Positions 3,369 through 37,723 of a DNA stretch of 64,000 nucleotides are shown here, piece after piece. This stretch comes from Chthoniobacter flavus (GTDB taxonomy: Bacteria; Verrucomicrobiota; Verrucomicrobiia; Chthoniobacterales; JACTMZ01): positions 15,758 through 79,757 of the forward strand of contig CAMBUL010000002.1 of the NCBI GenBank assembly GCA_945871065.1, written 5' to 3'. The notes beneath the pieces are model-generated. The model did not search any database. It saw nothing but the letters and a program-made list of their open reading frames with translations, and was not told the origin of the DNA. The translations under genes were made by a program, and so were the position numbers. Within the stretch, counting starts at the first letter, position 1. Every line of letters begins with the position of its first letter.

Positions 3369-4717
3369 TTGCCATGGACTACACGGGAAAACATGCCGCC
3401 GTGCTCGGCCTCGGCCGGAGCGGCGAGGCGGCCGCGCGGCTCCTCTTGGCGAACGGCGCCTCGGTCACCGTACTCGATTCCGGGGATCCCGCCCCGCGGC
3501 GAGAAGCCGCCGAAACACTTTCCTCGCGTGGCGCACGCGTCGTCTTGGGGAATGACGCGTTGCGCTGCGTGCAGGAGTTTGACTTCGCGGTGCTGAGCCC
3601 CGGGATTGATCCTGTGGTGCCGCTCGCGCGCCGGCCGGTTGAGGCCGGTATCCCTCTCCTCGGCGAAATTGAACTGGCCTTCCGTAGTTGCCTCTGCCCC
3701 GTGGTGGCGGTGACCGGCACGAACGGCAAGACGACCACGACCGGTCTGATTGCCGCGCTGCTCGATGCGGCCGGAATCAAAGCCGAGGCCTGCGGTAATA
3801 TCGGGCTGCCTTTCAGCGAGGTGGCCGCGCGAAGCGGTTCGCTTGATGCCGCGGTCGTTGAAATCAGCTCTTTCCAGTTGGAAACAACGGATGTTTTCCG
3901 TCCCCGGGTAGCGGTCTGGACCAACTTCAGCGCAAACCATCTCGACCGCTACCCGGACTTGGCTTCCTACCGTGCCGCGAAACTGCGTATTTTCGACCGC
4001 CAGAAGGCGGAAGATTTTGCCGTGGTCAACGCGCGCGCGGAGTTGCCGGCCCTGCGCGCCCAGCGCGTGACTTTCAGCGCCGTGCCCGGGGTGGAGGCGG
4101 ACTTCACCCTCGGCGCCGGGGACAGGATTTTTCATCATGGAGAGCCGGTTTTAGCCATGTCTGAAACCCGCTTGCGCGGGCCGCACAATGCGGAGAATCT
4201 CATGGCCGCGCTAGGGGCCGGTCTTTGCCTCGGCGCCGGAATGGAAGCGATGCTTCCCGCTGCGCGCGCTTATGTTCCCCTCCCGCACCGTGGTGAATTT
4301 GTCCGGGATACCGGTGGCGTTACCTGGATCAATGACTCGAAGTCGACCAACCTCGATGCGCTCTCCCAAGCATTGCGCGGCCAGAGCGGCGGAGTGGTGC
4401 TGATCGCGGGCGGCAAAAACAAGGGCTTTGGCTTCGCGCCGGTTGCCGGTCTGGTCAAAGATCGCGTCCACGACGCCGTGCTCATCGGTGAAATGCGCGA
4501 GTCCATCGCCCGCGACTGGGCACAGGTCACGTCCTGCCATCCGGCTGACTCCCTCAATGAGGCGGTGGCCAAAGCGCGCGCCTTGGCCCGTCCGGGCGAC
4601 ACGGTCCTTTTCTCCCCGGGCACATCCTCTTTTGACATGTTCCGCAGCTACGAGGAACGCGGGAATATTTTCAAACAACTGACCCAAATGATCCAACCAA
4701 CCAACCACATATCATGA
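3365..4717 (+). CDS. murD: UDP-N-acetylmuramoylalanine--D-glutamate ligase
   Basis: GLGRSGEAAARLL Rossmann start, GTNGKTTT P-loop, NDSKSTN. GTG 3365 overlaps the mraY stop; ATG 3374 is an alternative start. Confidence 0.92.
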   Translation: MIAMDYTGKHAAVLGLGRSGEAAARLLLANGASVTVLDSGDPAPRREAAETLSSRGARVVLGNDALRCVQEFDFAVLSPGIDPVVPLARRPVEAGIPLLGEIELAFRSCLCPVVAVTGTNGKTTTTGLIAALLDAAGIKAEACGNIGLPFSEVAARSGSLDAAVVEISSFQLETTDVFRPRVAVWTNFSANHLDRYPDLASYRAAKLRIFDRQKAEDFAVVNARAELPALRAQRVTFSAVPGVEADFTLGAGDRIFHHGEPVLAMSETRLRGPHNAENLMAALGAGLCLGAGMEAMLPAARAYVPLPHRGEFVRDTGGVTWINDSKSTNLDALSQALRGQSGGVVLIAGGKNKGFGFAPVAGLVKDRVHDAVLIGEMRESIARDWAQVTSCHPADSLNEAVAKARALARPGDTVLFSPGTSSFDMFRSYEERGNIFKQLTQMIQPTNHIS

Positions 4718-5400
4718 AAATCCCATTGTTCAGCAAACTGACGGCAAAATCGCACGGGCGCAAAGTGGTGCGAGCCTCGGCCCGCGCCATGCGCGGGGGC
4801 GAAGAGGAGTATTACGAGGCGGAGCCCAACATGAAACTTTCCCACGCTTTCATGGTCGTGCTCATCCTCCACGTCGTTGCGGTAGGCGGTATCTACGCCT
4901 TCAACCACATCAAGGTGAACAAAAACCCCGATTTGATCGCCAACCTTTCCGGCCGGTTCGCGAAGGCCACGGGGGTTGCCTCGTCGACGGTTGTGCCCGC
5001 TCCCCCCGCTCCCCCGCAGCGCCAACCCGGAGATGCGGACGAGCCTTTACCCATGATTGGCTCTGACGTGCCGGTGGCAGCTACGGCGGCTTCCGTCGCG
5101 ACGACGAAACCGGTGGCTCCTCTCGCGGCCTCCTCCGCGGTGGCACCGGCCGTGACCCAGACTTCGCCGCCCAAAGCTGCGGTGGCGAGCAAAGCAGCGC
5201 CGAAATCTGCCCCCGTCCCCGTGGTGGCGACCACTGCGGCCGCAGCGGGCACTTACAAGGTGGAAAAAGGTGACAATCCCTACAAGATTGCCAAGAAACT
5301 CGGCGTGACCTCCCAAGACTTGCTCAAGGTCAACAGCATCGAGGACCCGACCAAGCTGCAGATTGGCCAGGTCCTCAAGGTCCCGGCCAAAGCAAACTGA
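4714..5400 (+). CDS. LysM-domain membrane protein (single TM, Ala/Pro-rich linker, C-terminal LysM)
   Basis: TM segment AFMVVLILHVVAVGGIYAF and low-complexity A/P/V linker. LysM-like tail is YKVEKGDNPYKIAKKLGVTSQDLLKVNSIEDPTKLQIGQVLKVP. ATGA overlap with the murD stop. Confidence 0.8.
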   Translation: MKIPLFSKLTAKSHGRKVVRASARAMRGGEEEYYEAEPNMKLSHAFMVVLILHVVAVGGIYAFNHIKVNKNPDLIANLSGRFAKATGVASSTVVPAPPAPPQRQPGDADEPLPMIGSDVPVAATAASVATTKPVAPLAASSAVAPAVTQTSPPKAAVASKAAPKSAPVPVVATTAAAAGTYKVEKGDNPYKIAKKLGVTSQDLLKVNSIEDPTKLQIGQVLKVPAKAN

Positions 5401-5410
5401 AAAACGGTCC

Positions 5411-6553
5411 ATGCGCCGCCGCACGGGCTACATCCTGATCCTTTCCATGGGGAGTCTTCTCGCCATCGGAATCGTCATGCTTTTCAGCACGGGGGCTTTT
5501 GCCCACGACAGCCGGGGTGACATGTATTTCTTCGTCAAACGCCAGTTGATGTGGCTGGTCATCGGCGGGACGGCATTGGTGGCCGCTGCCATGCTCGATT
5601 ACCGCTTATGGGCGCGTTGGTGGCCGTGGGTTTATGGAGCGGCTGCCGTCATGCTCGTCCTCTGCTTTGTGCCTCCGGTCGGGATGAAGGTCAATGGTGC
5701 CTGGCGCTGGGTCAATCTGGGTTTCGCCAGCTTCCAGCCGAGCGAACTGGGCAAGATCGCCGTGCTCTTTTTCCTCGCCTCGTGGTATGAGCGCCATGAA
5801 GAACAGGCGTCGGAATTCTGGCGCGGCTTTGTCCTCCCTCTCGCCGCGGCAGGCGTCATCATGGCTCTCATCGTGGTCGAGGTGGACCTCGGAGCGACGG
5901 CGCTGATTGGTACGACGGCGCTGGCCATGGCATTCGTGGCCGGGGCCGGTTTGCGCTGGCTGCTGCCTTTAATCGGCGCCGGGGTGGCCGTGCTCTGCGT
6001 GGCTGCTTTCCATATCGAGGAGCGTTTTGGACGAATCATCGCGTTTCTCGATCCGGAAAAATACAAGCTGGGCGAGGGGTTGCAGCAATGGCAGGCCCTC
6101 CTCGCTTTCGGAGCCGGGGGCGTGGACGGTTTGGGGCTGGGTAATGGACGGCAGAAAATGCTCTACCTGCCGTATGCCCACACCGATTTTATTTTTCCCA
6201 TGATCGGGGAGGAACTCGGGCTGCGATTCACCCTGCTGACTGTTTTTTGCTTTCTGCTCATCCTTTTGGCCGGGGTCCTGATTGCCATGAATGCCAAAGA
6301 CCGCTTCGGCATGCTTCTCGGCTTCGGCATCACCATCATCATCACGCTGCAGGCGGCCATTAATATCGGGGTAACTACCTCGCTCCTGCCGAACAAAGGC
6401 ATGCCCCTGCCTTTTATCAGTTACGGTGGCAGCAATCTCGCGGTGTCGATGTTGCTCGTCGGCATCCTCGTCAACATCCACCGCCAAGGACGCCGCGAAC
6501 CGAAACGTCGTTCGCGCGTCGTCCCCGCAACCAGCCTCGCGGTCCGCTTCTGA
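5411..6553 (+). CDS. ftsW: SEDS-family peptidoglycan glycosyltransferase FtsW
   Basis: Motifs FQPSELGK, AHTDFIFPMIGEELG, LLPNKGMPLPFISYGGSN. ATG 5411 preferred over ORF start 5363, which overlaps the preceding gene. Confidence 0.9.
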   Translation: MRRRTGYILILSMGSLLAIGIVMLFSTGAFAHDSRGDMYFFVKRQLMWLVIGGTALVAAAMLDYRLWARWWPWVYGAAAVMLVLCFVPPVGMKVNGAWRWVNLGFASFQPSELGKIAVLFFLASWYERHEEQASEFWRGFVLPLAAAGVIMALIVVEVDLGATALIGTTALAMAFVAGAGLRWLLPLIGAGVAVLCVAAFHIEERFGRIIAFLDPEKYKLGEGLQQWQALLAFGAGGVDGLGLGNGRQKMLYLPYAHTDFIFPMIGEELGLRFTLLTVFCFLLILLAGVLIAMNAKDRFGMLLGFGITIIITLQAAINIGVTTSLLPNKGMPLPFISYGGSNLAVSMLLVGILVNIHRQGRREPKRRSRVVPATSLAVRF

Positions 6554-6555
6554 TT

Positions 6556-7644
6556 ATGAAATTTGCCATCGCATGCGGAGGCACGGGAGGGCACCTCTTT
6601 CCAGGTTTGGCGGTGGCGGAAGTCCTGCGTGGCCAAGGCCACGAGGTTCTACTTTTTGTTTCGGAGAAGGAGATCGATGCCCGCGCCCTGCGGGCCCATC
6701 CCGATCTGCCGCGCCAGAAGCTTCCGTCGATCGGCCTGCCTGCCATCTTTTCTCCCGCGATGGTCACTTTCCTGCGCCGCCTGCGTTCCAGTCTCAAGTC
6801 CTGCGGCTCCTCGTATGATACGGACCGCCCCGACGCGGTTCTGGGCATGGGTGGGTTCACCAGCATTGCCCCGCTTATTGCGGCCCGCCGCCGCGGAATA
6901 CCTGCTTTTTTGCACGAATCGAACGCCATTCCCGGCAAGGCAAACCGCCTGGCTGCCCGATTTTGTCGCTCCGTGCTGCTCGGCTTCGACGATTGTGCGC
7001 GTCATTTTTCGAAAAGCACGACCCGGGTCACAGGGACGCCAATTCGCCGGGAATTGGCCGAAGGCGCGCCAGCGCGCGCCGAAGCACGGAGTGCGCTTGG
7101 CCTCGAGCCGGAGCGGACGACGCTCCTCGTCATGGGTGGAAGCCAGGGGGCGGCCGGAATCAATGCCCTGATGGCGCAAGCCGCGTCCCATTTACCCGCC
7201 GCTGCCTTGCAGGTCGTACATCTGGCCGGGGATCGTGATGTCGAGACCGTGCGGTCTGCTTATGCGACTGCGGGAGTGCCTGCGGTGGTGCTCCCCTTTT
7301 GCGACCGCATGCAGGAAGTTTATCCCGCCGCCGATCTGGCTATCTCCCGCTCGGGCGCCGCCAGTCTCGGAGAATTGTCATGGTTCGGTCTTCCCTCGGT
7401 GCTTATTCCCTTCCCTTATGCCGCCGAAGATCACCAAAGGTTGAATGCGGAGATTTTTACCCGCGCCGGCGCGGCAAAGTTGCTGGCCGAGCCGGAGGCA
7501 ACGGGCGAAAGCCTGTTCCGTCTCGTAATCTCTTTGCTGGAATCACCGGAGACTTTGGCCGCCATGGCCACTGCGGCTAGGGCGCTGGCTCCGCGGGATG
7601 CGGCGGCGCGGGTGGCCGCGGTTTTGACGGAAGTAAAGTCATGA
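6556..7644 (+). CDS. murG: undecaprenyldiphospho-muramoylpentapeptide beta-N-acetylglucosaminyltransferase
   Basis: GGTGGHLFPGLAVAE, MGGSQGA, SRSGAASLGEL. dcw position between ftsW and murC. Confidence 0.93.
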   Translation: MKFAIACGGTGGHLFPGLAVAEVLRGQGHEVLLFVSEKEIDARALRAHPDLPRQKLPSIGLPAIFSPAMVTFLRRLRSSLKSCGSSYDTDRPDAVLGMGGFTSIAPLIAARRRGIPAFLHESNAIPGKANRLAARFCRSVLLGFDDCARHFSKSTTRVTGTPIRRELAEGAPARAEARSALGLEPERTTLLVMGGSQGAAGINALMAQAASHLPAAALQVVHLAGDRDVETVRSAYATAGVPAVVLPFCDRMQEVYPAADLAISRSGAASLGELSWFGLPSVLIPFPYAAEDHQRLNAEIFTRAGAAKLLAEPEATGESLFRLVISLLESPETLAAMATAARALAPRDAAARVAAVLTEVKS

Positions 7645-30242: not shown

Positions 30243-30308
30243 TGTAGCGGCGGTCTATGACCGCCGGAGCATTTGGAAAGGCAGCGACGGTCATAGACCG
30301 CCGCTACA
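30243..30308. repeat. nested palindrome (REP-like hairpin); probable terminator of the desaturase gene
   Basis: Perfect 21-bp arms: tgtagcggcggtctatgaccg (30243-30263) and cggtcatagaccgccgctaca (30288-30308), separated by a 24-nt loop. The left arm is itself a perfect mini-hairpin (cggcggtc-tat-gaccgccg) and the right arm a near-perfect one. Begins 11 nt after the stop codon. Confidence 0.8.
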
Positions 30309-31595: not shown

Positions 31596-32392
31596 ACTCT
31601 TGCTTCTACGAGTGCGACGTCTTCCACCGGCGCCTGCGGCCCAAGCAGCATGAGTTTCTTTACCGCGTGTTTTATTTCTACCTCGATCTCGCCGAGTTGG
31701 ACATCGTGGCACGGAAGCTGAAAATTTTCGGGGTCAATCGTCCAAACATTTACAGCCTGCGCGACCGGGATCATCTGCAATACGGCCCCGGCGAGCGCCC
31801 GATCGCGGACAACGTGCGCGAGTTCCTCGAGCGCGCAGGGTGTCCGCTGGAAGAGAGCGGCGCGATCCGCATGTTCTGTTTCCCGCGGATGCTTGGTTAC
31901 ACCTTCAATCCCATCACCATTTATTTCTGCTTCCGGGCCGACGGCACCCCGCATGGGTCTGTCGTGCAGGTCGGCAACACCTTCCGCGAATTGAAGCCGT
32001 ATCTGGTGCCGCGCACGCCGGATGGCCAGTGCGACTTCGAGGTGCGGGTGCCGAAAGACTACTATGTGTCGCCGTTCAGTCCGGTCGATCTCGAGTTCCA
32101 CTTCCGCTTCCACCTGCCGGACGAAAAACTGCGGGTCTTCATTGATGACTACGATGCGGAGGGCAAAGTGCTGATCAGCACGCTGACCGGCCGGCGCAAG
32201 GAAATGACCTTGGCCAACCTCCTGGGCTTCACGGCCAGGTTTCCTTTCATCACCTTGAAGGTCATCTGGCTCATCCACTGGCAGGCGCTGCGCCTCTGGC
32301 TCAAGCGGGTGCCGTTTTTCCGGAAGGAAACCCGCGTCGAAGACCAGCGCGGGGTCTTCCGACCGCACAAGTCATTGCAAAAGAAGGTCTAA
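31592..32392 (+). CDS. DUF1365-family protein
   Basis: Begins NSCFYECDVFHRRLRPKQHEFLYRVFYFYLDL. GTG 31592 overlaps the upstream stop (GTGA). The longer ORF-track start lies inside the oxidoreductase gene. Confidence 0.82.
   Translation: MNSCFYECDVFHRRLRPKQHEFLYRVFYFYLDLAELDIVARKLKIFGVNRPNIYSLRDRDHLQYGPGERPIADNVREFLERAGCPLEESGAIRMFCFPRMLGYTFNPITIYFCFRADGTPHGSVVQVGNTFRELKPYLVPRTPDGQCDFEVRVPKDYYVSPFSPVDLEFHFRFHLPDEKLRVFIDDYDAEGKVLISTLTGRRKEMTLANLLGFTARFPFITLKVIWLIHWQALRLWLKRVPFFRKETRVEDQRGVFRPHKSLQKKV
31945..32383 (+). repeat. direct repeat copy 1 (3' part of the DUF1365 gene)
   Basis: Aligns without indels to 37282-37720 (offset 5337). About 33 mismatches by eye, concentrated in the 3' third. 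Confidence 0.9.
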
Positions 32393-32445
32393 AGTGTTAG
32401 TTGGATAAATTTGCATCTCGATGCAGATATTGTATGCTGTGATGC

Positions 32446-32685
32446 ATGAGGACCACTTTGAGCATCCACGACACGCTTTTGCACAAGGCCAAGGAGGTTT
32501 CCGCTCAGCGGAATGTTTCCGTGGGCGAATTGGTGGAGGAGGGATTGCGCGTGACCCTGGCAGCTCGGCCCAAGGCGGGGCGGGCCGCGGTTCGTCCGCT
32601 GAAGACTTTCCGCGGTGAAGGCGTCCAACCCGGGGTCGATCTGACGAATTCGGCGTCGCTGTTGGAAGCCATGGAGGGGCGGTGA
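32446..32685 (+). CDS. vapB: type II antitoxin (VapB-like, ribbon-helix-helix/DUF2191-like)
   Basis: 79 aa, MRTTLSIHDTLLHKAKEVSAQRNVSVGELVEEGLR. Stop overlaps the toxin start (GTGA). Confidence 0.8.
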   Translation: MRTTLSIHDTLLHKAKEVSAQRNVSVGELVEEGLRVTLAARPKAGRAAVRPLKTFRGEGVQPGVDLTNSASLLEAMEGR

Positions 32686-33110
32686 ATTTCGTCGATGTCA
32701 ATGTGCTCGTCGCGGCTCATCGCGAGGACACGGACAAGCACGCGGAGATCCGCGCGTGGCTCGAGGCGGAAATGGCGTCGCCGGCCGGGGTTGGGGTATC
32801 GGAGTTGGTCTTGAGTGGGTGTTTGCGCGTCATCACGCACGCCAAAATCTTCCGCCAACCCACACCTTTGTCCGCGGCGCTGGATTTTGTGGAAGACTTG
32901 CGCTCGCGCCCCGAAGTGCATGTTTTTGCACCGGGTGCCGATCACTGGAAAATTTTCGTCGATCTTTGTCGGCGATCCGACGCGCGCGGCAACTTGGTGC
33001 CCGACGCCTACCATGCGGCTCTGGCTCTTGAGTGGGGTTGTGATTGGATCACGCTCGATCGAGGGTTCGGTCGCTTCCCCGGGTTGCGCTGGCGGCATCC
33101 GTTGGATTGA
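32682..33110 (+). CDS. vapC: PIN-domain toxin VapC
   Basis: 142 aa with N-terminal FVDVNVL (acidic PIN residue) and DAYHAALALEWGCDWITLDRGF. Coupled to the upstream antitoxin. Confidence 0.85.
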   Translation: MNFVDVNVLVAAHREDTDKHAEIRAWLEAEMASPAGVGVSELVLSGCLRVITHAKIFRQPTPLSAALDFVEDLRSRPEVHVFAPGADHWKIFVDLCRRSDARGNLVPDAYHAALALEWGCDWITLDRGFGRFPGLRWRHPLD

Positions 33111-33587
33111 TCGCGGAGGTCTGCGCGTTTGAGCGCCGTGCCGTAGCCTCACCGATCCAACGGGCTGCGCACGGCCAAGCCGGGGCGGTTGAGCACGTGG
33201 AGAGCACCTGAGCCTAGGGAGGGCTCGGGGCAGGTCCCGAGCCTGCGGGACCCCATTTAACTGTAGGGTCGGCAACCTGTCCGCCGTGTGCGGATCCCCG
33301 CCGACGAATCCATGGACTCGCGGCACACCGTGCCGCGGCGAGAGATAAAATTAAAACGCTTTAAATCATGGTCGTGCTGACGTCGGAGTGTCCGAGCGAT
33401 TTCTAGTCGGGCGGCCGGGGCATATTTGTCGAGATGCACATTTGCCTGGCGCGAGAGGGAGATTCATCTCCGCTTTTTCGGTTCGAAAAAAGCCCCCGTG
33501 GCCATTTCACCGCGCTTTTTGGCCGTTTCGTCGCATTTTTGATAATTTTTATTGCGGTGTGCCGGGGGCAACCTAATTTGCGCCCGC

Positions 33588-33977
33588 ATGAAATCACTAG
33601 CCCACTCTTCCATGGTGGCGGCGCTCTTCGCCGCGGTCACCCTCACCATCCAACCCTCCGCGCAGGCTGATACCTTCGGCACAAGCGGCAACGAGTTCAC
33701 GGTTGATTTCGTTAACATCGGCAACGCGGGCAATGCGGCTGATACCACCACCTATGGCGCGGTGCCCTACGAATACCGCGCGAGCATTTACGAGATCTCC
33801 CAGGACGCCATCACCAAGGCCACGGCGAGCGGGATGGCCAACGTGACGGCTGGGCCATGGGCGGGAAGCCAGCCTGCGGCGACTATCAACTGGTACGAGG
33901 CGGCGGCCTTCGTCAATTTCCTCAACACGAACTCGGGGAAGACGGCAGCTTACAATCTGACCTTCACCACCAACTAG
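33588..33977 (+). CDS. N-terminal fragment of the FGE/SUMF1-like (C-type-lectin fold) DGR target protein, ending at in-frame TAG
   Basis: Signal peptide MKSLAHSSMVAALFAAVTLTIQPSAQA. The TAG at 33975-33977 is in the same frame as the next ORF, two codons before its ATG. Confidence 0.7.
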   Translation: MKSLAHSSMVAALFAAVTLTIQPSAQADTFGTSGNEFTVDFVNIGNAGNAADTTTYGAVPYEYRASIYEISQDAITKATASGMANVTAGPWAGSQPAATINWYEAAAFVNFLNTNSGKTAAYNLTFTTN

Positions 33978-33980
33978 AGC

Positions 33981-34529
33981 ATGGCTCTGTGGAGCAGCGA
34001 GCAGGCTTGGACGGCGGGAGGAACCAATCTTTACCGGAACAAGAACGCCTTCTATTTCCTGCCCAGCGAGAACGAATGGTACAAGGCGGCGTATTACAAC
34101 CCTGCCGGGTCGGATTATTTCCTCTATCCGACGGCGAGCAGCAGCGTCCCGACGGCGGTGGCCAGCGGGACCGATGCGGGCAGTGCGGTTTACAATGGCG
34201 TTGCCTCGATTCCGGCCATAGTGGACAGCGCTGGAGGCTTAAGCCCGTATGGAACGATGGGCCAAGGCGGCAATGTGTTTGAGTGGACTGAGAGTGCCTT
34301 TGCTGGCTCAAACAGCTCTTCGTCCGAGTCTCGCGCGATCCGCGGTGGCTCCTGGAGCGACCCCGAGTTCGCCTTGAGCTCCTCGTTCCGGCTCGACGAC
34401 GTCCCGTCGTTCGAGGACGTCAACTTCGGTTTTCGTGTCGCGAGTATCCCTGAACCCTCGACAGCAGTGTTGGTGTTGATGGCAGGAGGCGCTTGGCTGC
34501 TCAGGAAACGCTTCCGCCGTTCCCTTTGA
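33981..34529 (+). CDS. C-terminal fragment of the FGE/SUMF1-like DGR target protein, carrying the VR and a PEP-CTERM anchor
   Basis: NVFEWTES...RAIRGGSW...GFRVAS is typical of FGE-sulfatase/CLec DGR variable proteins. C-terminus IPEPSTAVLVLMAGGAWLLRKRFRR is a PEP-CTERM sorting signal. Confidence 0.8.
   Translation: MALWSSEQAWTAGGTNLYRNKNAFYFLPSENEWYKAAYYNPAGSDYFLYPTASSSVPTAVASGTDAGSAVYNGVASIPAIVDSAGGLSPYGTMGQGGNVFEWTESAFAGSNSSSSESRAIRGGSWSDPEFALSSSFRLDDVPSFEDVNFGFRVASIPEPSTAVLVLMAGGAWLLRKRFRRSL
34317..34444 (+). repeat. DGR variable repeat (VR)
   Basis: 128 bp that aligns without gaps to 34807-34934. It differs almost only where the partner has A. Confidence 0.85.
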
Positions 34530-34561
34530 TCTTTGGCCCTTTGCCCTTTTCCTCTTTGATC

Positions 34562-34584
34562 CGGGGCGGCGTGCCGCCGCCCCG
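34562..34584 (+). other. GC-rich hairpin downstream of the VR/target gene
   Basis: cggggcggcg-tgc-cgccgccccg: 10-bp stem, 3-nt loop, 33 nt after the stop codon. Confidence 0.7.
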
Positions 34585-34594
34585 ACCACAGGAA

Positions 34595-34619
34595 GCCGCG
34601 AAGCGGTCTAATTTTTTTT
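34595..34619 (+). terminator. putative intrinsic terminator of the target gene
   Basis: Short stem gccgc-gaa-gcggt followed by a T8 run (34612-34619). Confidence 0.5.
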
Positions 34620-34630
34620 GAGCATTTGCC

Positions 34631-34942
34631 GTGTCCCGCGAGGAACTACCGAAAGCGCTGGCGACATGGTATGACTACACGAAGTGGGTGTTGGATCGTG
34701 TGGATGGATTTCCCAAGAATCAGCGTTTCGTCTTGGGCACGCGCAAAGTTGGCGCTTGCGCACGGCCGTGCTGTGGCGATAACCCATCTATCGGGCACCC
34801 GGTCCGAAAACGTCCGAGAATCGCGCGATCCGCGGTGGCAACTGGAACAACACCGAGAACAACTTGCGCTCCTCGAACCGGAACAACAACGACCCGACGA
34901 ACGAGAACAACCACATCGGTTTTCGTGTCGCGAGGCCCATGA
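34631..34942 (+). pseudogene. avd: truncated avd (DGR accessory variability determinant) stub; the frame runs on through the TR
   Basis: First ~45 codons (LPKALATWYDYTKWVLDRVDGFPKNQRFVLGTR) fit the Avd/four-helix-bundle N-terminal pattern. Similarity is then lost, and the stub is about 70 codons short of a full Avd before the TR begins. Confidence 0.6.
34807..34934 (+). repeat. DGR template repeat (TR)
   Basis: In the VR frame it reads KTSENRAIRGGNWNNTENNLRSSNRNNNDPTNENNHIGFRVAR, with 12 AAC codons. Non-coding location downstream of the avd stub. Confidence 0.85.
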
Positions 34943-35289
34943 GCGCGCCGCTGGTCCCAGCCAAGCGGCGTGATGCGGCAAAAGTTGCCGGCCAGAACTA
35001 CCGCCTTCCTCCGGAGGCCGCAGCCGTGCCGGGTTCAGGGACCACCGGGGAGTCCAGGGCGCGGGGAGGGCCGAGAGGCCGCGCCCCGCGGACGAAGCAG
35101 ACGCGCCCCGCTGCGGCCGGTAGGAAACGAAAACCGTGGCGGGGCATTTGCTCGTTTGGCAAGATATCGTGAAACTGCTCAATCATGCCATGGAGTGAAC
35201 GCGCCACCGCGCGTCACTCAGGGCGGACGTTCGGCGAATGGCCATTGAATTGAGGCCGATTCGATGGTCTGCAAATACCCACGAGCACG

Positions 35290-35500
35290 TTGACCCCTTC
35301 TGGCGTCCTCAGTTTGAGTGTCGCGGAGCGAATCCAGCTTGTTGAAGATATCTGGGATACCATCGTAGGTGCCAGACGAGGTGGGTTTGACGGATTTGCA
35401 GAAGGCGGAGATCGATCGTCGATTGGATGCTTATCATCGTAGCCCCGAGGAAGGTTCTCCGTGGGATATGGTCAGGGAGCGGATCCTCAGTAGACAATGA
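35290..35500 (+). pseudogene. frameshifted antitoxin (putative addiction-module component family)
   Basis: Frame 1 reads LSVAERIQLVEDIWDTIV, then runs to a TAG. The expected continuation PDEVGLTDLQKAEIDRRLDAYHRSPEEGSPWDMVRERILSRQ is in another frame. Its stop overlaps the toxin ATG. Confidence 0.6.
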
Positions 35501-35793
35501 TCCGTCGGCTCGTCATCCGCCCGGAAGCCGAGGCGGAGATGACCGAAGCTTTCGACTGGTATGAAGAGCGACTTCCCGGGTTGGGAGCTTCCTTTTTGCT
35601 TTGTGTTGATGCGGTTTTCCGCGGCATCGTCCGTGACTCGGAGCGTTGGCCTCGTATCCATCGCGAAGCGTGACGTGCTCTGACGCGCCGGTTTCCCTAC
35701 GAGGTCTTCTTCGTGGAGGACGAGGAACGTGTTGTCGTTCTGTCCGTATTCCACGCCAAACGGAATCCGAAGAGCTGGCGGGAGAGAGTTTGA
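35497..35793 (+). pseudogene. ParE/RelE-family toxin interrupted by an in-frame TGA
   Basis: MIRRLVIRPEAEAEMTEAFDWYEERLPGLGASF...IHREA, then TGA (35671-35673), then RALTRRFPYEVFFVEDEERVVVLSVFHAKRNP, all in one frame. Confidence 0.65.
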
Positions 35794-35895
35794 AAGGCGG
35801 ACAAAAACATGAGCCGAAAACCGCTAACCAGTCGGACCAGCCAACCTCGCTGTGCTCGCCGGCTGTCCTCGAGCGTTCGCGTAAAAATACGCGCC

Positions 35896-35924
35896 TTGAC
35901 ATGGATGCCGTATAGGCATACAAA
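35896..35924 (+). promoter_or_regulatory. candidate sigma70-type promoter of brnTA with embedded inverted repeat
   Basis: TTGACA (35896-35901), 17-nt spacer, TACAAA (35919-35924). The spacer contains atgcc-gtata-ggcat. ATG lies at 35931. Confidence 0.35.
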
Positions 35925-35930
35925 TCAAAG

Positions 35931-36206
35931 ATGATCTTCGACTGGGATCCAGAGAAGAATGAAAAAATCAAGAGAGAGCGAGGGATCTCTTTTGAGGAAA
36001 TCGCTCTACTGCTTGGTGCCGGGAGTGTCTGGGCAGTCACAAAACACTGGAATACGGAAAAATATCCCAACCAAAGGATTTTTCTCATTCCCATCGATGG
36101 CCGCATTATGGCGGTTCCATTTGTCCAAGATAAGGACCGGTTTTTTCTGAAGACTGCTTTCCCCTCAAAAAAGATGACAAAACTCTACAACGAGGAGCAA
36201 AAATGA
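35931..36206 (+). CDS. brnT: BrnT-family (DUF497-like) toxin
   Basis: 91 aa, IFDWDPEKNEKIKRERGISFEEIA. Toxin-first order and an ATGA overlap with the next gene. Confidence 0.75.
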   Translation: MIFDWDPEKNEKIKRERGISFEEIALLLGAGSVWAVTKHWNTEKYPNQRIFLIPIDGRIMAVPFVQDKDRFFLKTAFPSKKMTKLYNEEQK

Positions 36207-36478
36207 AACAAACCACTGAAGCAGAAGAAAAGGAAATCGCAGACGCCCTTGAGCGCGGAGATATCGAGCTGGAGAAACCATCCCGCAAACTCCTCTCCGA
36301 TTTGAAGCGGGCATCGGAAAATACGTTCAAGAAGGACAGAAGGATCAACGTGCGCCTGAGCAGTCATGATTTGCTTGGCATCCAGAGAAAGGCCCTCAAA
36401 AAAGGTCTTCCCTACCAAGCACTGATTTCCGGTTTGATCCACCAATATGTTGAGGGAGAACTCTTGGAAAAAACATAA
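36203..36478 (+). CDS. brnA: BrnA-family antitoxin
   Basis: 91 aa. C-terminal INVRLSSHDLLGIQRKALKKGLPYQALISGLIHQYV matches the BrnA/CopG-like pattern. Confidence 0.75.
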   Translation: MKQTTEAEEKEIADALERGDIELEKPSRKLLSDLKRASENTFKKDRRINVRLSSHDLLGIQRKALKKGLPYQALISGLIHQYVEGELLEKT

Positions 36479-36642
36479 TGCGAACAGACCGATGGACCTA
36501 ACTGCCACGCCTGAAGTGGCACTTTTGGCGCGTCGCCTGCGTAGCAGGCTTTGGTCACAAAACCGAGTAACAGCAGGTCATCGGAGACGTTCGGTCACAA
36601 AAATTACTTGCTCTGCACACCCTTCATGTGTAGGATTCATGT

Positions 36643-36849
36643 GTGGCAACGAATTTACAGATAGACCAATCACTGCTTGAGCAAGCGAAATCGTTGGCAG
36701 GCTTTCCCACGAAGCGTGAAACCGTGAACGAAGCCCTTAAAGAGTTCATTCAGAGTCGCCTCCGCCGACAACTTTTGCAACTTCGAGGGCAAATCGAGTA
36801 TTTCGAGGACTACGATTACAAGGCTCTGCGCCGAGTGAAGAATCTATGA
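36643..36849 (+). CDS. vapB: VapB-family antitoxin (paralog of 37823-38023)
   Basis: 68 aa, MATNLQIDQSLLEQAKSLAGFPTKRETVNEALKEFI. GTG start. Overlaps the vapC start. Confidence 0.8.
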   Translation: MATNLQIDQSLLEQAKSLAGFPTKRETVNEALKEFIQSRLRRQLLQLRGQIEYFEDYDYKALRRVKNL

Positions 36850-37244
36850 TTGCTTGTGACACTTCAGCGTTATCTCAGTTCCTCAGACGTTCCCCGGACA
36901 CTCAAAATGATGTTGCACTTAAGGTAGAGAAATTGATCGACTCAAATGAATTGGCACTCTTTGGAATCGTTCGCCAAGAGCTTCTTTCTGGGGTCAAGTT
37001 ACCCGCTCACTTTGAGCGTATCGATCTGACCACTCAGGCACTTCCTCTGTTTTTTGCGGACGACGAAGATCATACGACAGCAGCAAGATTTTTTAACACT
37101 TGTCGCGCGAAAGGTATTCAAGGTTCCCCCATTGACTTTCTGATCTGTGCGATGGCTGTTAAGCGAAAGTTTCGTATTTATACGACCGATCCAGATTTCG
37201 AGTTGTATGAACCTATCATACCCATCGAGCTCTATCGCCCGTAA
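36846..37244 (+). CDS. vapC: PIN-domain toxin VapC (paralog of 38020-38472)
   Basis: 132 aa with IACDTSAL, CRAKGIQGSPIDFLICAMAV, IYTTDPDF. Confidence 0.85.
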   Translation: MIACDTSALSQFLRRSPDTQNDVALKVEKLIDSNELALFGIVRQELLSGVKLPAHFERIDLTTQALPLFFADDEDHTTAARFFNTCRAKGIQGSPIDFLICAMAVKRKFRIYTTDPDFELYEPIIPIELYRP

Positions 37245-37267
37245 GACCGAACAAAGCGCTGCACCGA

Positions 37268-37723
37268 ATGGCTACCCGCGCCACCCCGCAGGCGTCGGTC
37301 GTGCAGGTGGGCAACACCTTCCGCGAATTGAAGCCGTATCTGGTGCCGCGCACGCCGGATGGCCAGTGCGACTTCGAGGTGCGGGTGCCGAAGGACTACT
37401 ATGTGTCGCCGTTCAGTCCGGTGGATCTCGACTTCCACTTCCGCTTCCACCTGCCAGACGAAAAACTGCGGGTCTTCATTGATGACTACGATGCGGAGGG
37501 CAATGTGCTGATCAGCACGTTGACCGGCCGGCGCAAGGAAATGACCTTCGCCAACCTCCTCGGTTTCACGGTCAGGTTTCCCTTCATCACGCTCAAGGTC
37601 ATCGGCCTCATCCACTGGCAGGCCTTCCGCCTCTGGCTCAAACGCGTGCCGTTTTTCCGAAAAGAGGCACGCGCCGAAGACCAGCGCGGTGTGTTCCGTC
37701 CGCACAAGTCTTTGCAGAAGTAG
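37268..37723 (+). pseudogene. 3' fragment of a second DUF1365 gene copy (direct repeat copy 2 at 37282-37720)
   Basis: Translation VVQVGNTFRELKPYLVPRTPDGQCDFEVRVPKDYYVSPFSPVDL... parallels residues of the intact gene at 31592-32392. It lacks the N-terminal ~115 codons. Confidence 0.8.

Follow-up and report, generated by a model that had tools for sequence, protein, structure and literature searches.

Within the 64-kb stretch of DNA analysed here (the window) lies a locus that is very probably an inactivated diversity-generating retroelement (DGR) of the avd-RT-TR order, known as Architecture B2 (Wu et al. 2018, NAR 46:11, PMC5758913), now a fossil with a frozen variable repeat (VR). The template repeat (TR) and the VR are still in place. 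Only 38 codons remain of avd and 14 of the reverse transcriptase (RT), and the two remnants meet at a 7-nt microhomology. The VR is identical in every dataset in which we could read it. The features of the locus, together with the positions of one of them in related cassettes, are collected in Table 1.

Table 1. Features of the DGR remnant in the window, and the RNA element in related cassettes
Feature	Sequence	Position	Strand	Remarks
DGR cassette remnant as homologous unit	window	33151-35231	+	delimited by blastn against paralogous cassettes of MAG M30B17
Target gene	window	33589-34529	+	signal peptide, FGE-sulfatase/C-type-lectin-like domain with VR, PEP-CTERM anchor
Variable repeat (VR)	window	34321-34444	+	124-nt repeat of TR
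GC hairpin	window	34563-34583	+	9-bp stem GGGGCGGCG/CGCCGCCCC, 3-nt loop; read from sequence
avd stub	window	34631-34744	+	first 38 codons; full gene about 119-127 codons
Putative deletion junction	window	34738-34744	+	7-nt microhomology CACGCGC
RT remnant	window	34738-34782	+	last 14 codons and TAA (HAQSWRLRTAVLWR, then stop); frame differs from avd stub
Template repeat (TR)	window	34811-34934	+	36 adenines; derived C at 34912
Structured RNA element	window	34917-35146	+	about 230 nt; overlaps last 18 nt of TR
Degraded parDE-like pair	window	35290-35792		PF09720 antitoxin and ParE toxin
Structured RNA element	L019	7526-7753
Structured RNA element	L020	2292-2518
Structured RNA element	L021	2539-2761
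Structured RNA element	L022	1852-2074
Structured RNA element	L024	1927-2173
Structured RNA element	L026	7521-7725
Structured RNA element	L041	1221-1443
Structured RNA element	L042	7177-7397

The repeat pair and its target gene

VR and TR are direct repeats 490 bp apart, with identical GC-rich 3' ends (GGTTTTCGTGTCGCGAG) beyond which the sequences diverge. They differ at 27 positions. At 25 of these the TR has an adenine, which means that 25 of its 36 adenines are changed in the VR (A>T 13, A>G 7, A>C 5); at the remaining two, the TR has C and the VR has A. Since 25 of the 27 mismatches fall on TR adenines, the differences characteristic of a DGR and a pattern foreign to chance repeats, mutagenic retrohoming took place at the VR in the past. 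The cassette was thus once active, as had been supposed in an earlier reading made without database searches (hereafter the sequence-only reading). We searched the 64-kb window for a second TR or further VRs and found none.

The target protein has, near its C-terminus, an FGE-sulfatase/C-type-lectin-like domain (PF03781, E 9.8e-13) with the VR at its end, which is where a DGR is expected to place it, although the reading frame is here broken by a TAG codon. The PEP-CTERM anchor that follows matches PF07589 at E 0.0013, under the cut-off of that family. The start codon, ATG 33589, was read from the sequence by eye. Over 298 aa, the target protein is 47% identical to the target of the intact DGR of Rubritalea profundi. 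Between the target stop codon and avd, 119 nt past the VR, stands a GC-rich hairpin, which could be a DGR target-site stem-loop or a terminator element; the relatives have a different palindrome in the equivalent place.

The TAG, at 33975-33977, is in frame and splits the target in the window into two ORFs of the same frame. It is common to the window and all six collinear metagenome contigs described below, which have A at 33976. Logan unitigs that cross this position in four other lake metagenomes all have G, which restores a tryptophan codon (TGG), and the TGG allele is linked to a T at 33965 in runs X2 and X5; paralogous genes inflate the depth around 33976, so that the assignment of these unitigs to the window locus is uncertain. 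The nonsense codon appears to be polymorphic rather than fixed, and the frozen target gene may still be used in other lakes. The simplest reading is that the deletion described in the next section is fixed in the species, that the target stayed open for some time and that the TAG arose later, at the level of the strain.

Remnants of avd and RT at a microhomology junction

The ORF that starts at GTG 34631 does begin like Avd, as the sequence-only reading had proposed. It matches the NCBIfam model NF033474 (DivGenRetAVD) over profile positions 5-36 of 104 (E 0.0012), with a score far under the family cut-off, as expected of a fragment, and a Pfam search of the stub returned no Avd match. The stub is 80% identical (tblastn E 5e-17) to the corresponding part, residues 7-41, of the intact Avd that Rubritalea profundi encodes (locus L019). 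Support for the stub as Avd is therefore weak in NCBIfam and strong by homology to intact Avds. When the stub and nine relatives are aligned by codons, identity runs through ...KNQRFVLGTR and divergence is complete after GTR; by blastn, homology to every relative stops at 34743/34744. The resemblance is thus lost after codon 38, and not after about 45 codons as first thought. A full-length Avd, with its four-helix bundle, is absent: 38 of about 119-127 codons remain, which agrees with the earlier estimate that roughly two thirds of avd had been deleted. Past the stub, the ORF reads on through the TR, as had been noticed, in a non-native frame and as far as 34942. The 103-codon ORF that begins at 34631 is thus no gene but an artefact of the fusion.

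That the RT is missing was likewise borne out. Searching the 64-kb window by tblastn with the family RT found nothing. Its 1229 six-frame segments were also compared with a family RT HMM, which had a sole match (E 0.02), to the last 14 codons of an RT gene; this is all that is left of a DGR-clade RT within 64 kb. The remnant matches the C-termini of family RTs, such as AHAEHAQSWRLRSRILGG and AHAKHAQSWGLRRAVLKL, each followed by a stop as in the window. Its stop codon is 28 nt upstream of the TR, a distance that is 33 nt in L019. The sequence-only reading had expected the RT downstream of the TR, following the avd-TR-RT order of BPP-1, and here it was mistaken, for the intact relatives have the RT upstream. 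Both L019 and the cassette of Stieleria bergensis (L026) are ordered target-avd-RT-TR; in L019, avd occupies 5989-6348, RT 6303-7385 and TR 7419-7542. The remnants in the window are collinear with these two cassettes and keep the avd-RT-TR order, on one strand and downstream of the target, that is typical of B2.

The sequence CACGCGC at the junction is common to avd (GGC ACG CGC) and to the 3' end of the RT gene (CAC GCG CAA). By blastn, leftward homology to relatives ends at 34744 and rightward homology, to L022, begins at 34738. Moreover, the VR-to-TR spacing of 490 bp in the window is much shorter than that in L019 (1760 bp) or L026 (1755 bp). Taken together, the RT remnant, the CACGCGC junction and the spacing in intact relatives indicate a single deletion, which would have removed avd from codon 39 to its end and all of the RT gene except 14 codons. 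Its size of about 1.27 kb (1760 or 1755 minus 490) rests on L019 and L026, which are distant. A closer intact cassette was sought with the RT N-terminus of a sister lineage, and 11 of its 11 relatives proved to be short RT pieces of 42-106 aa. Given the 7-nt microhomology, we infer that the deletion arose by slippage or illegitimate recombination.

Point substitutions and population data

Two substitutions in the repeats bear on the time since the last retrohoming. At 34912 the TR has a derived C, where the other aligned family TRs have A. The corresponding VR position, 34422, is still A; the TR therefore acquired its C later than the last homing, and this C did not pass into the VR. The VR for its part has a derived A at 34378; C is found here in the TR and also in two sister VRs, those of L018 and L031.

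The window is matched collinearly, at 98.7-99.8% identity, by six independently assembled metagenome contigs (L001-L006, ENA ERZ272802xx). Each of these contains the VR and the TAG; the TR and the junction are present in five, since L005 stops at 34449. Across 32398-35273 they show no differences wherever they cover it, and the flanks differ by up to about 1.3%. We also examined four lake or sediment metagenomes, from four studies, in Logan. Each holds the whole VR in one unbranched unitig and the stub, junction, TR and RNA in another, in both cases with 0 differences from the window, and the VR and junction unitigs are at the single-copy depth of the genome (11.8, 23.2, 6.8 and 11). If the VR were diversifying, branches or breaks would be expected in the unitig graph. 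The VR is thus identical in 11 of 11 datasets, namely the window, the six ENA contigs and the unitigs of the four runs. Assemblies and unitigs drop rare variants, and the contigs and unitigs, in which we saw no ongoing VR diversification, would hide variants below roughly 10-20% at depths of 7-23x. The sole contig in the four runs that resembles the 3' half of avd and the RT of the sister lineage has depths of 4.05, 4.4, 9.66 and 4.65 against those just given for the window genome, and it must therefore come from another organism.

A conserved structured RNA 3' of the TR

The sequence that follows the TR in the window aligns with that of seven other cassettes. For the eight cassettes together, RNAalifold predicts a multi-helix structure with compensatory changes in 43 of 68 predicted pairs; one of the helices is formed between a conserved GGAACCACCGG segment and the 3' end of the TR. 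A covariance model, R1, built from six relatives matches the window over its full length (78.7 bits, E about 5e-21), and 58 of the 70 pairs are kept. The window thus has the family-specific structured RNA that stands 3' of the TR in its B2 relatives. The GC-rich stems pointed out in the sequence-only reading are real, since 35057-35093 forms one hairpin of this element; the roughly 350 bp after the TR, however, which had been taken for the place where the RT was lost, hold the TR-flanking RNA. An Rfam search of 33000-36000 gave no match at E up to 1, and our literature search met no specific account of B2 elements with a conserved RNA following the TR.

At one stage the RNA seemed to be decaying in the window, as a MAFFT alignment kept 48 of 68 pairs there, and five of six relatives with an RT kept 62-68. 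This was withdrawn when the model-guided alignment gave 58 of 70 pairs, the same as in the intact but distant L026. An AAG-for-AAT change in a single-stranded motif of the RNA is common to the window and to L042, of the sister lineage. We conclude that the state of the RNA supports neither a fossil nor an element served in trans.

Comparison with known systems

The window shares its target family, Avd and RT C-terminus with the B2 elements of Rubritalea profundi SAORIC-165 (L019) and Stieleria bergensis (L026), whose TRs are 79-85% identical to its own and are likewise followed by the structured RNA. It differs from them in lacking avd from codon 39 to the end and the RT apart from 14 codons, and in showing no sign of current diversification. 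With the DGR of the Bordetella phage BPP-1 (mtd-avd-TR-brt), the window has in common the adenine-specific TR-to-VR pattern, Avd and a structured RNA 3' of the TR. The RT, however, comes before the TR in the window family and after it in BPP-1. Moreover, the window element is chromosomal (Verrucomicrobiota), has a PEP-CTERM target and is non-functional, whereas the BPP-1 target is a phage tail fibre. When the BPP-1 system was reconstituted, the RT, Avd and TR each proved essential, and its spacer RNA recruits bRT-Avd and primes cDNA synthesis (PMC12875486). The RNA element of the window is presumably the counterpart of this spacer, a likeness drawn from position only.

A family of decaying cassettes

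By blastn, homology between the cassette of the window and its relatives starts at 33151 (with L031) and ends at 35231 (with L018); the flanks are not syntenic. Nucleotide identity to the Chthoniobacterales MAG M30B17 is 83-84%; judging by this and by the lake-water runs in which the locus occurs, the host probably belongs to the Chthoniobacterales and lives in fresh water. To survey the family, we used aligned Avd N-termini as the query for a scan of species-representative genomes. The window genome is apparently not among them, as a scan for DRVDGFPK, a motif of the window stub, missed the window locus. The survey gave 27 loci (L014-L040), almost all in Verrucomicrobiota and a few in other taxa, including Stieleria (Planctomycetota); one was a false positive. 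We read the 26 true loci as about 8 intact (L019, L020, L021, L023, L024, L026, L030 and L033), one cut by a contig end and about 17 degraded, the latter being truncated, frameshifted or RT-less, each at a different point. Degraded loci usually keep the target and an N-terminal piece of avd, and several remnants occur per MAG in M30B17 and in the Chthoniobacter MAG binchicken_co186_59. Indeed, the 19 closest database relatives of the stub are all short (51-72 aa, a few perhaps cut by contig ends), and most of them diverge past the shared N-terminus. A literature search for RT-less or decayed DGRs found nothing specific.

Five degraded relatives resemble the window in keeping the target and an N-terminal piece of avd, with the RT lost or broken: L018 and L031 (both in MAG M30B17), L035, L041 and L013. 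Each has end-points of its own and, for this reason, we regard the degraded cassettes as independent events. In L018 the loss begins at RT codon 79, takes in the whole TR and ends 136 nt past it. The TR was lost altogether in L031 and L013, and the latter keeps the target and a 51-codon stub with an unrelated operon directly after. L035, of Akkermansiaceae, has its avd stub joined straight to the TR. The last of the five is L041 (region 1020-1090, compared with window 34738-34782), whose RT-internal deletion has its right end between EY and AQSWRLRAAVLGA followed by the stop, 13 codons before the end of the RT where the window has 14, and whose TR and RNA are pristine (187.6 bits). This coincidence could reflect a microhomology hot spot (GAG CAY GCN CAA) or selection for the 5' boundary of the RNA.

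Several further arrangements were seen among the relatives. Three deletions (L018 type, P0026 and P0027) start within a few codons of the RT motif ...SYRPG(A/E)Y, which again could be due to a hot spot or to selection. L042 has, at 5165-7042, a hicAB-like pair between a full-length avd (PF22296) and a frameshifted RT made up of three ORFs of 97, 115 and 123 aa; a hicAB pair also separates avd and RT in L043-L045 and in L041 (427-860). The TR of L023 (Geminisphaera colitermitum TAV2, 4713-6391) comes right after the target, unlike that of its B2 relatives, and it is separated from avd-RT by three to four tandemly repeated units, which measure about 533-569 bp and all begin with AAATTTAACCACGGAGGACACGGAGGAACACGGAG.

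The surrounding island

The cassette is part of a 4.9-kb island (32393-37275) bracketed by two copies of a 446-bp 3' piece of a DUF1365 gene (31938-32383 and 37276-37720, 92% identity). The island contains two vapBC modules, the DGR remnant, the degraded parDE-like pair and brnTA, and the DGR remnant has toxin-antitoxin modules on its flanks, as in relatives with a hicAB pair the cassette has one inside; one more vapBC stands between the DUF1365 duplicate and a CFA-synthase gene. As the segment 32398-35273 is free of SNPs between the window and the six contigs wherever covered and the divergence reaches about 1.3% in the flanking core genes, a recent sweep or a recent transfer of the island is suggested. 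The toxin-antitoxin pair next to the DGR remnant had been called degraded, and it is: the PF09720 antitoxin extends over two frames and the ParE gene has an in-frame TGA at 35671-35673. Read through, the toxin matches PF05016 (E 1.5e-5). Unitigs of three other runs have two extra bases (AG) after 35366, which would restore the PF09720 frame. Outside the island, a near-perfect inverted repeat (30243-30308; 32-nt arms, 88% complementary, 2-nt spacer) lies between fatty-acid desaturase and amine-oxidase genes.

Alternative explanations

We propose the following course of events. The ancestral cassette would have been of Architecture B2 and would have comprised a target with a C-terminal VR, avd, RT, TR and structured RNA, and its VR would have been mutagenised at positions templated by TR adenines. 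One event of illegitimate recombination or replication slippage at two copies of CACGCGC would then have deleted about 1.27 kb, so that codon 38 of avd came to adjoin the RT gene 14 codons from its end. Both proteins needed for retrohoming would have been destroyed in this way, with the TR, the 3' RNA element and the VR left in place. The element would have been silent since, with the TR and the VR each gaining a point substitution and the TR change remaining uncopied; the VR would have become fixed in every population sampled, and the target of the window strain would later have acquired its nonsense codon. The sequence-only reading had instead implied two separate losses, and two or more deletions, one in avd and another of an RT that stood downstream of the TR, would indeed follow from the avd-TR-RT order of the BPP-1 paradigm. 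We consider this very improbable, because the RT precedes the TR in every intact relative with the same Avd and target, because the RT stop and last 14 codons are found 28 nt upstream of the TR in the window, and because downstream of the TR the window is collinear with intact cassettes. It is scarcely conceivable that the junction is an assembly artefact, with an intact avd-RT in the real genome that was collapsed or skipped. An artefact has in its favour that VR and TR are repeats, that breaks and mis-joins are frequent where assemblers meet a DGR, and that several related contigs do start or end beside such cassettes. Yet the identical gapless junction is present in the five independently assembled contigs that reach it, and in single unitigs of 708-1184 nt in three runs and of 395 nt in the fourth, at single-copy depth; moreover, it falls in unique sequence outside the VR/TR repeat.

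The sequence-only reading had left two fates for the element, a fossil with a frozen VR or a TR that depends on an RT and Avd encoded elsewhere. The second would make the locus a non-autonomous module that has kept its cis parts and is supplied with RT-Avd in trans by a second DGR of the same genome; a diverged DGR elsewhere in the genome could provide both proteins. The cis parts are all there (the RT 3' end upstream of the TR, the TR, the structured RNA, the VR and the downstream hairpin), the TR still has 36 adenines, and the RNA is full length (78.7 bits, 58 of 70 pairs). TR and RT, furthermore, need not be co-transcribed (Wu et al., PMC5758913), and the independent RT-internal deletion of L041, with its pristine TR and RNA, ends within 3 nt of the same site. 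Mainly on account of this last coincidence, we still grant service in trans a small probability, and we judge it unlikely: the C at TR 34912 is uncopied, the VR has a non-adenine change of its own and is identical in 11 of 11 independent datasets, the 64 kb hold no RT or full-length Avd, and none of the four metagenomes has an avd/RT contig at >=80% identity to the sister lineage that matches the depth profile. A helper RT is probably absent from the rest of the genome as well, the search having covered 64 kb. The related idea that the stub-TR-RNA modules of the window, L041 and L035 are selected non-autonomous DGR satellites, with a recurrent end-point that marks the 5' boundary of the DGR RNA, is if anything less probable. 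Between the two fates, then, the fossil with a frozen VR is the better supported, by the uncopied C at TR 34912, the A at VR 34378, the invariance of VR and junction, the in-frame TAG in the target of the window strain and the depths of the sole contig that resembles avd and RT of the sister lineage. The need for RT, Avd and TR in the BPP-1 system and the frequency of decay in the family speak for it as well.

Discussion

The locus is best annotated as a DGR remnant, with a pseudo-avd, a pseudo-RT and an orphan TR. It offers a clean natural example of how hypermutation is switched off, in which one microhomology deletion fixes one variant of a surface protein, and this fixed protein appears still to be an open reading frame in other lake populations. 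The decay of a DGR is in itself an ordinary kind of gene decay, and the points that concern the whole family, the excess of decayed copies and the RNA, outweigh the single locus in importance. Degraded copies outnumber intact ones in Verrucomicrobiota (about 17 versus 8), and DGR surveys centred on the RT therefore miss most former targets. The covarying RNA of about 230 nt, which is without an Rfam family, is a candidate recruiter of RT-Avd in the avd-RT-TR architecture. If the satellite reading were true, the end-point 13-14 codons before the RT stop would mark the functional 5' boundary of this RNA in avd-RT-TR elements.
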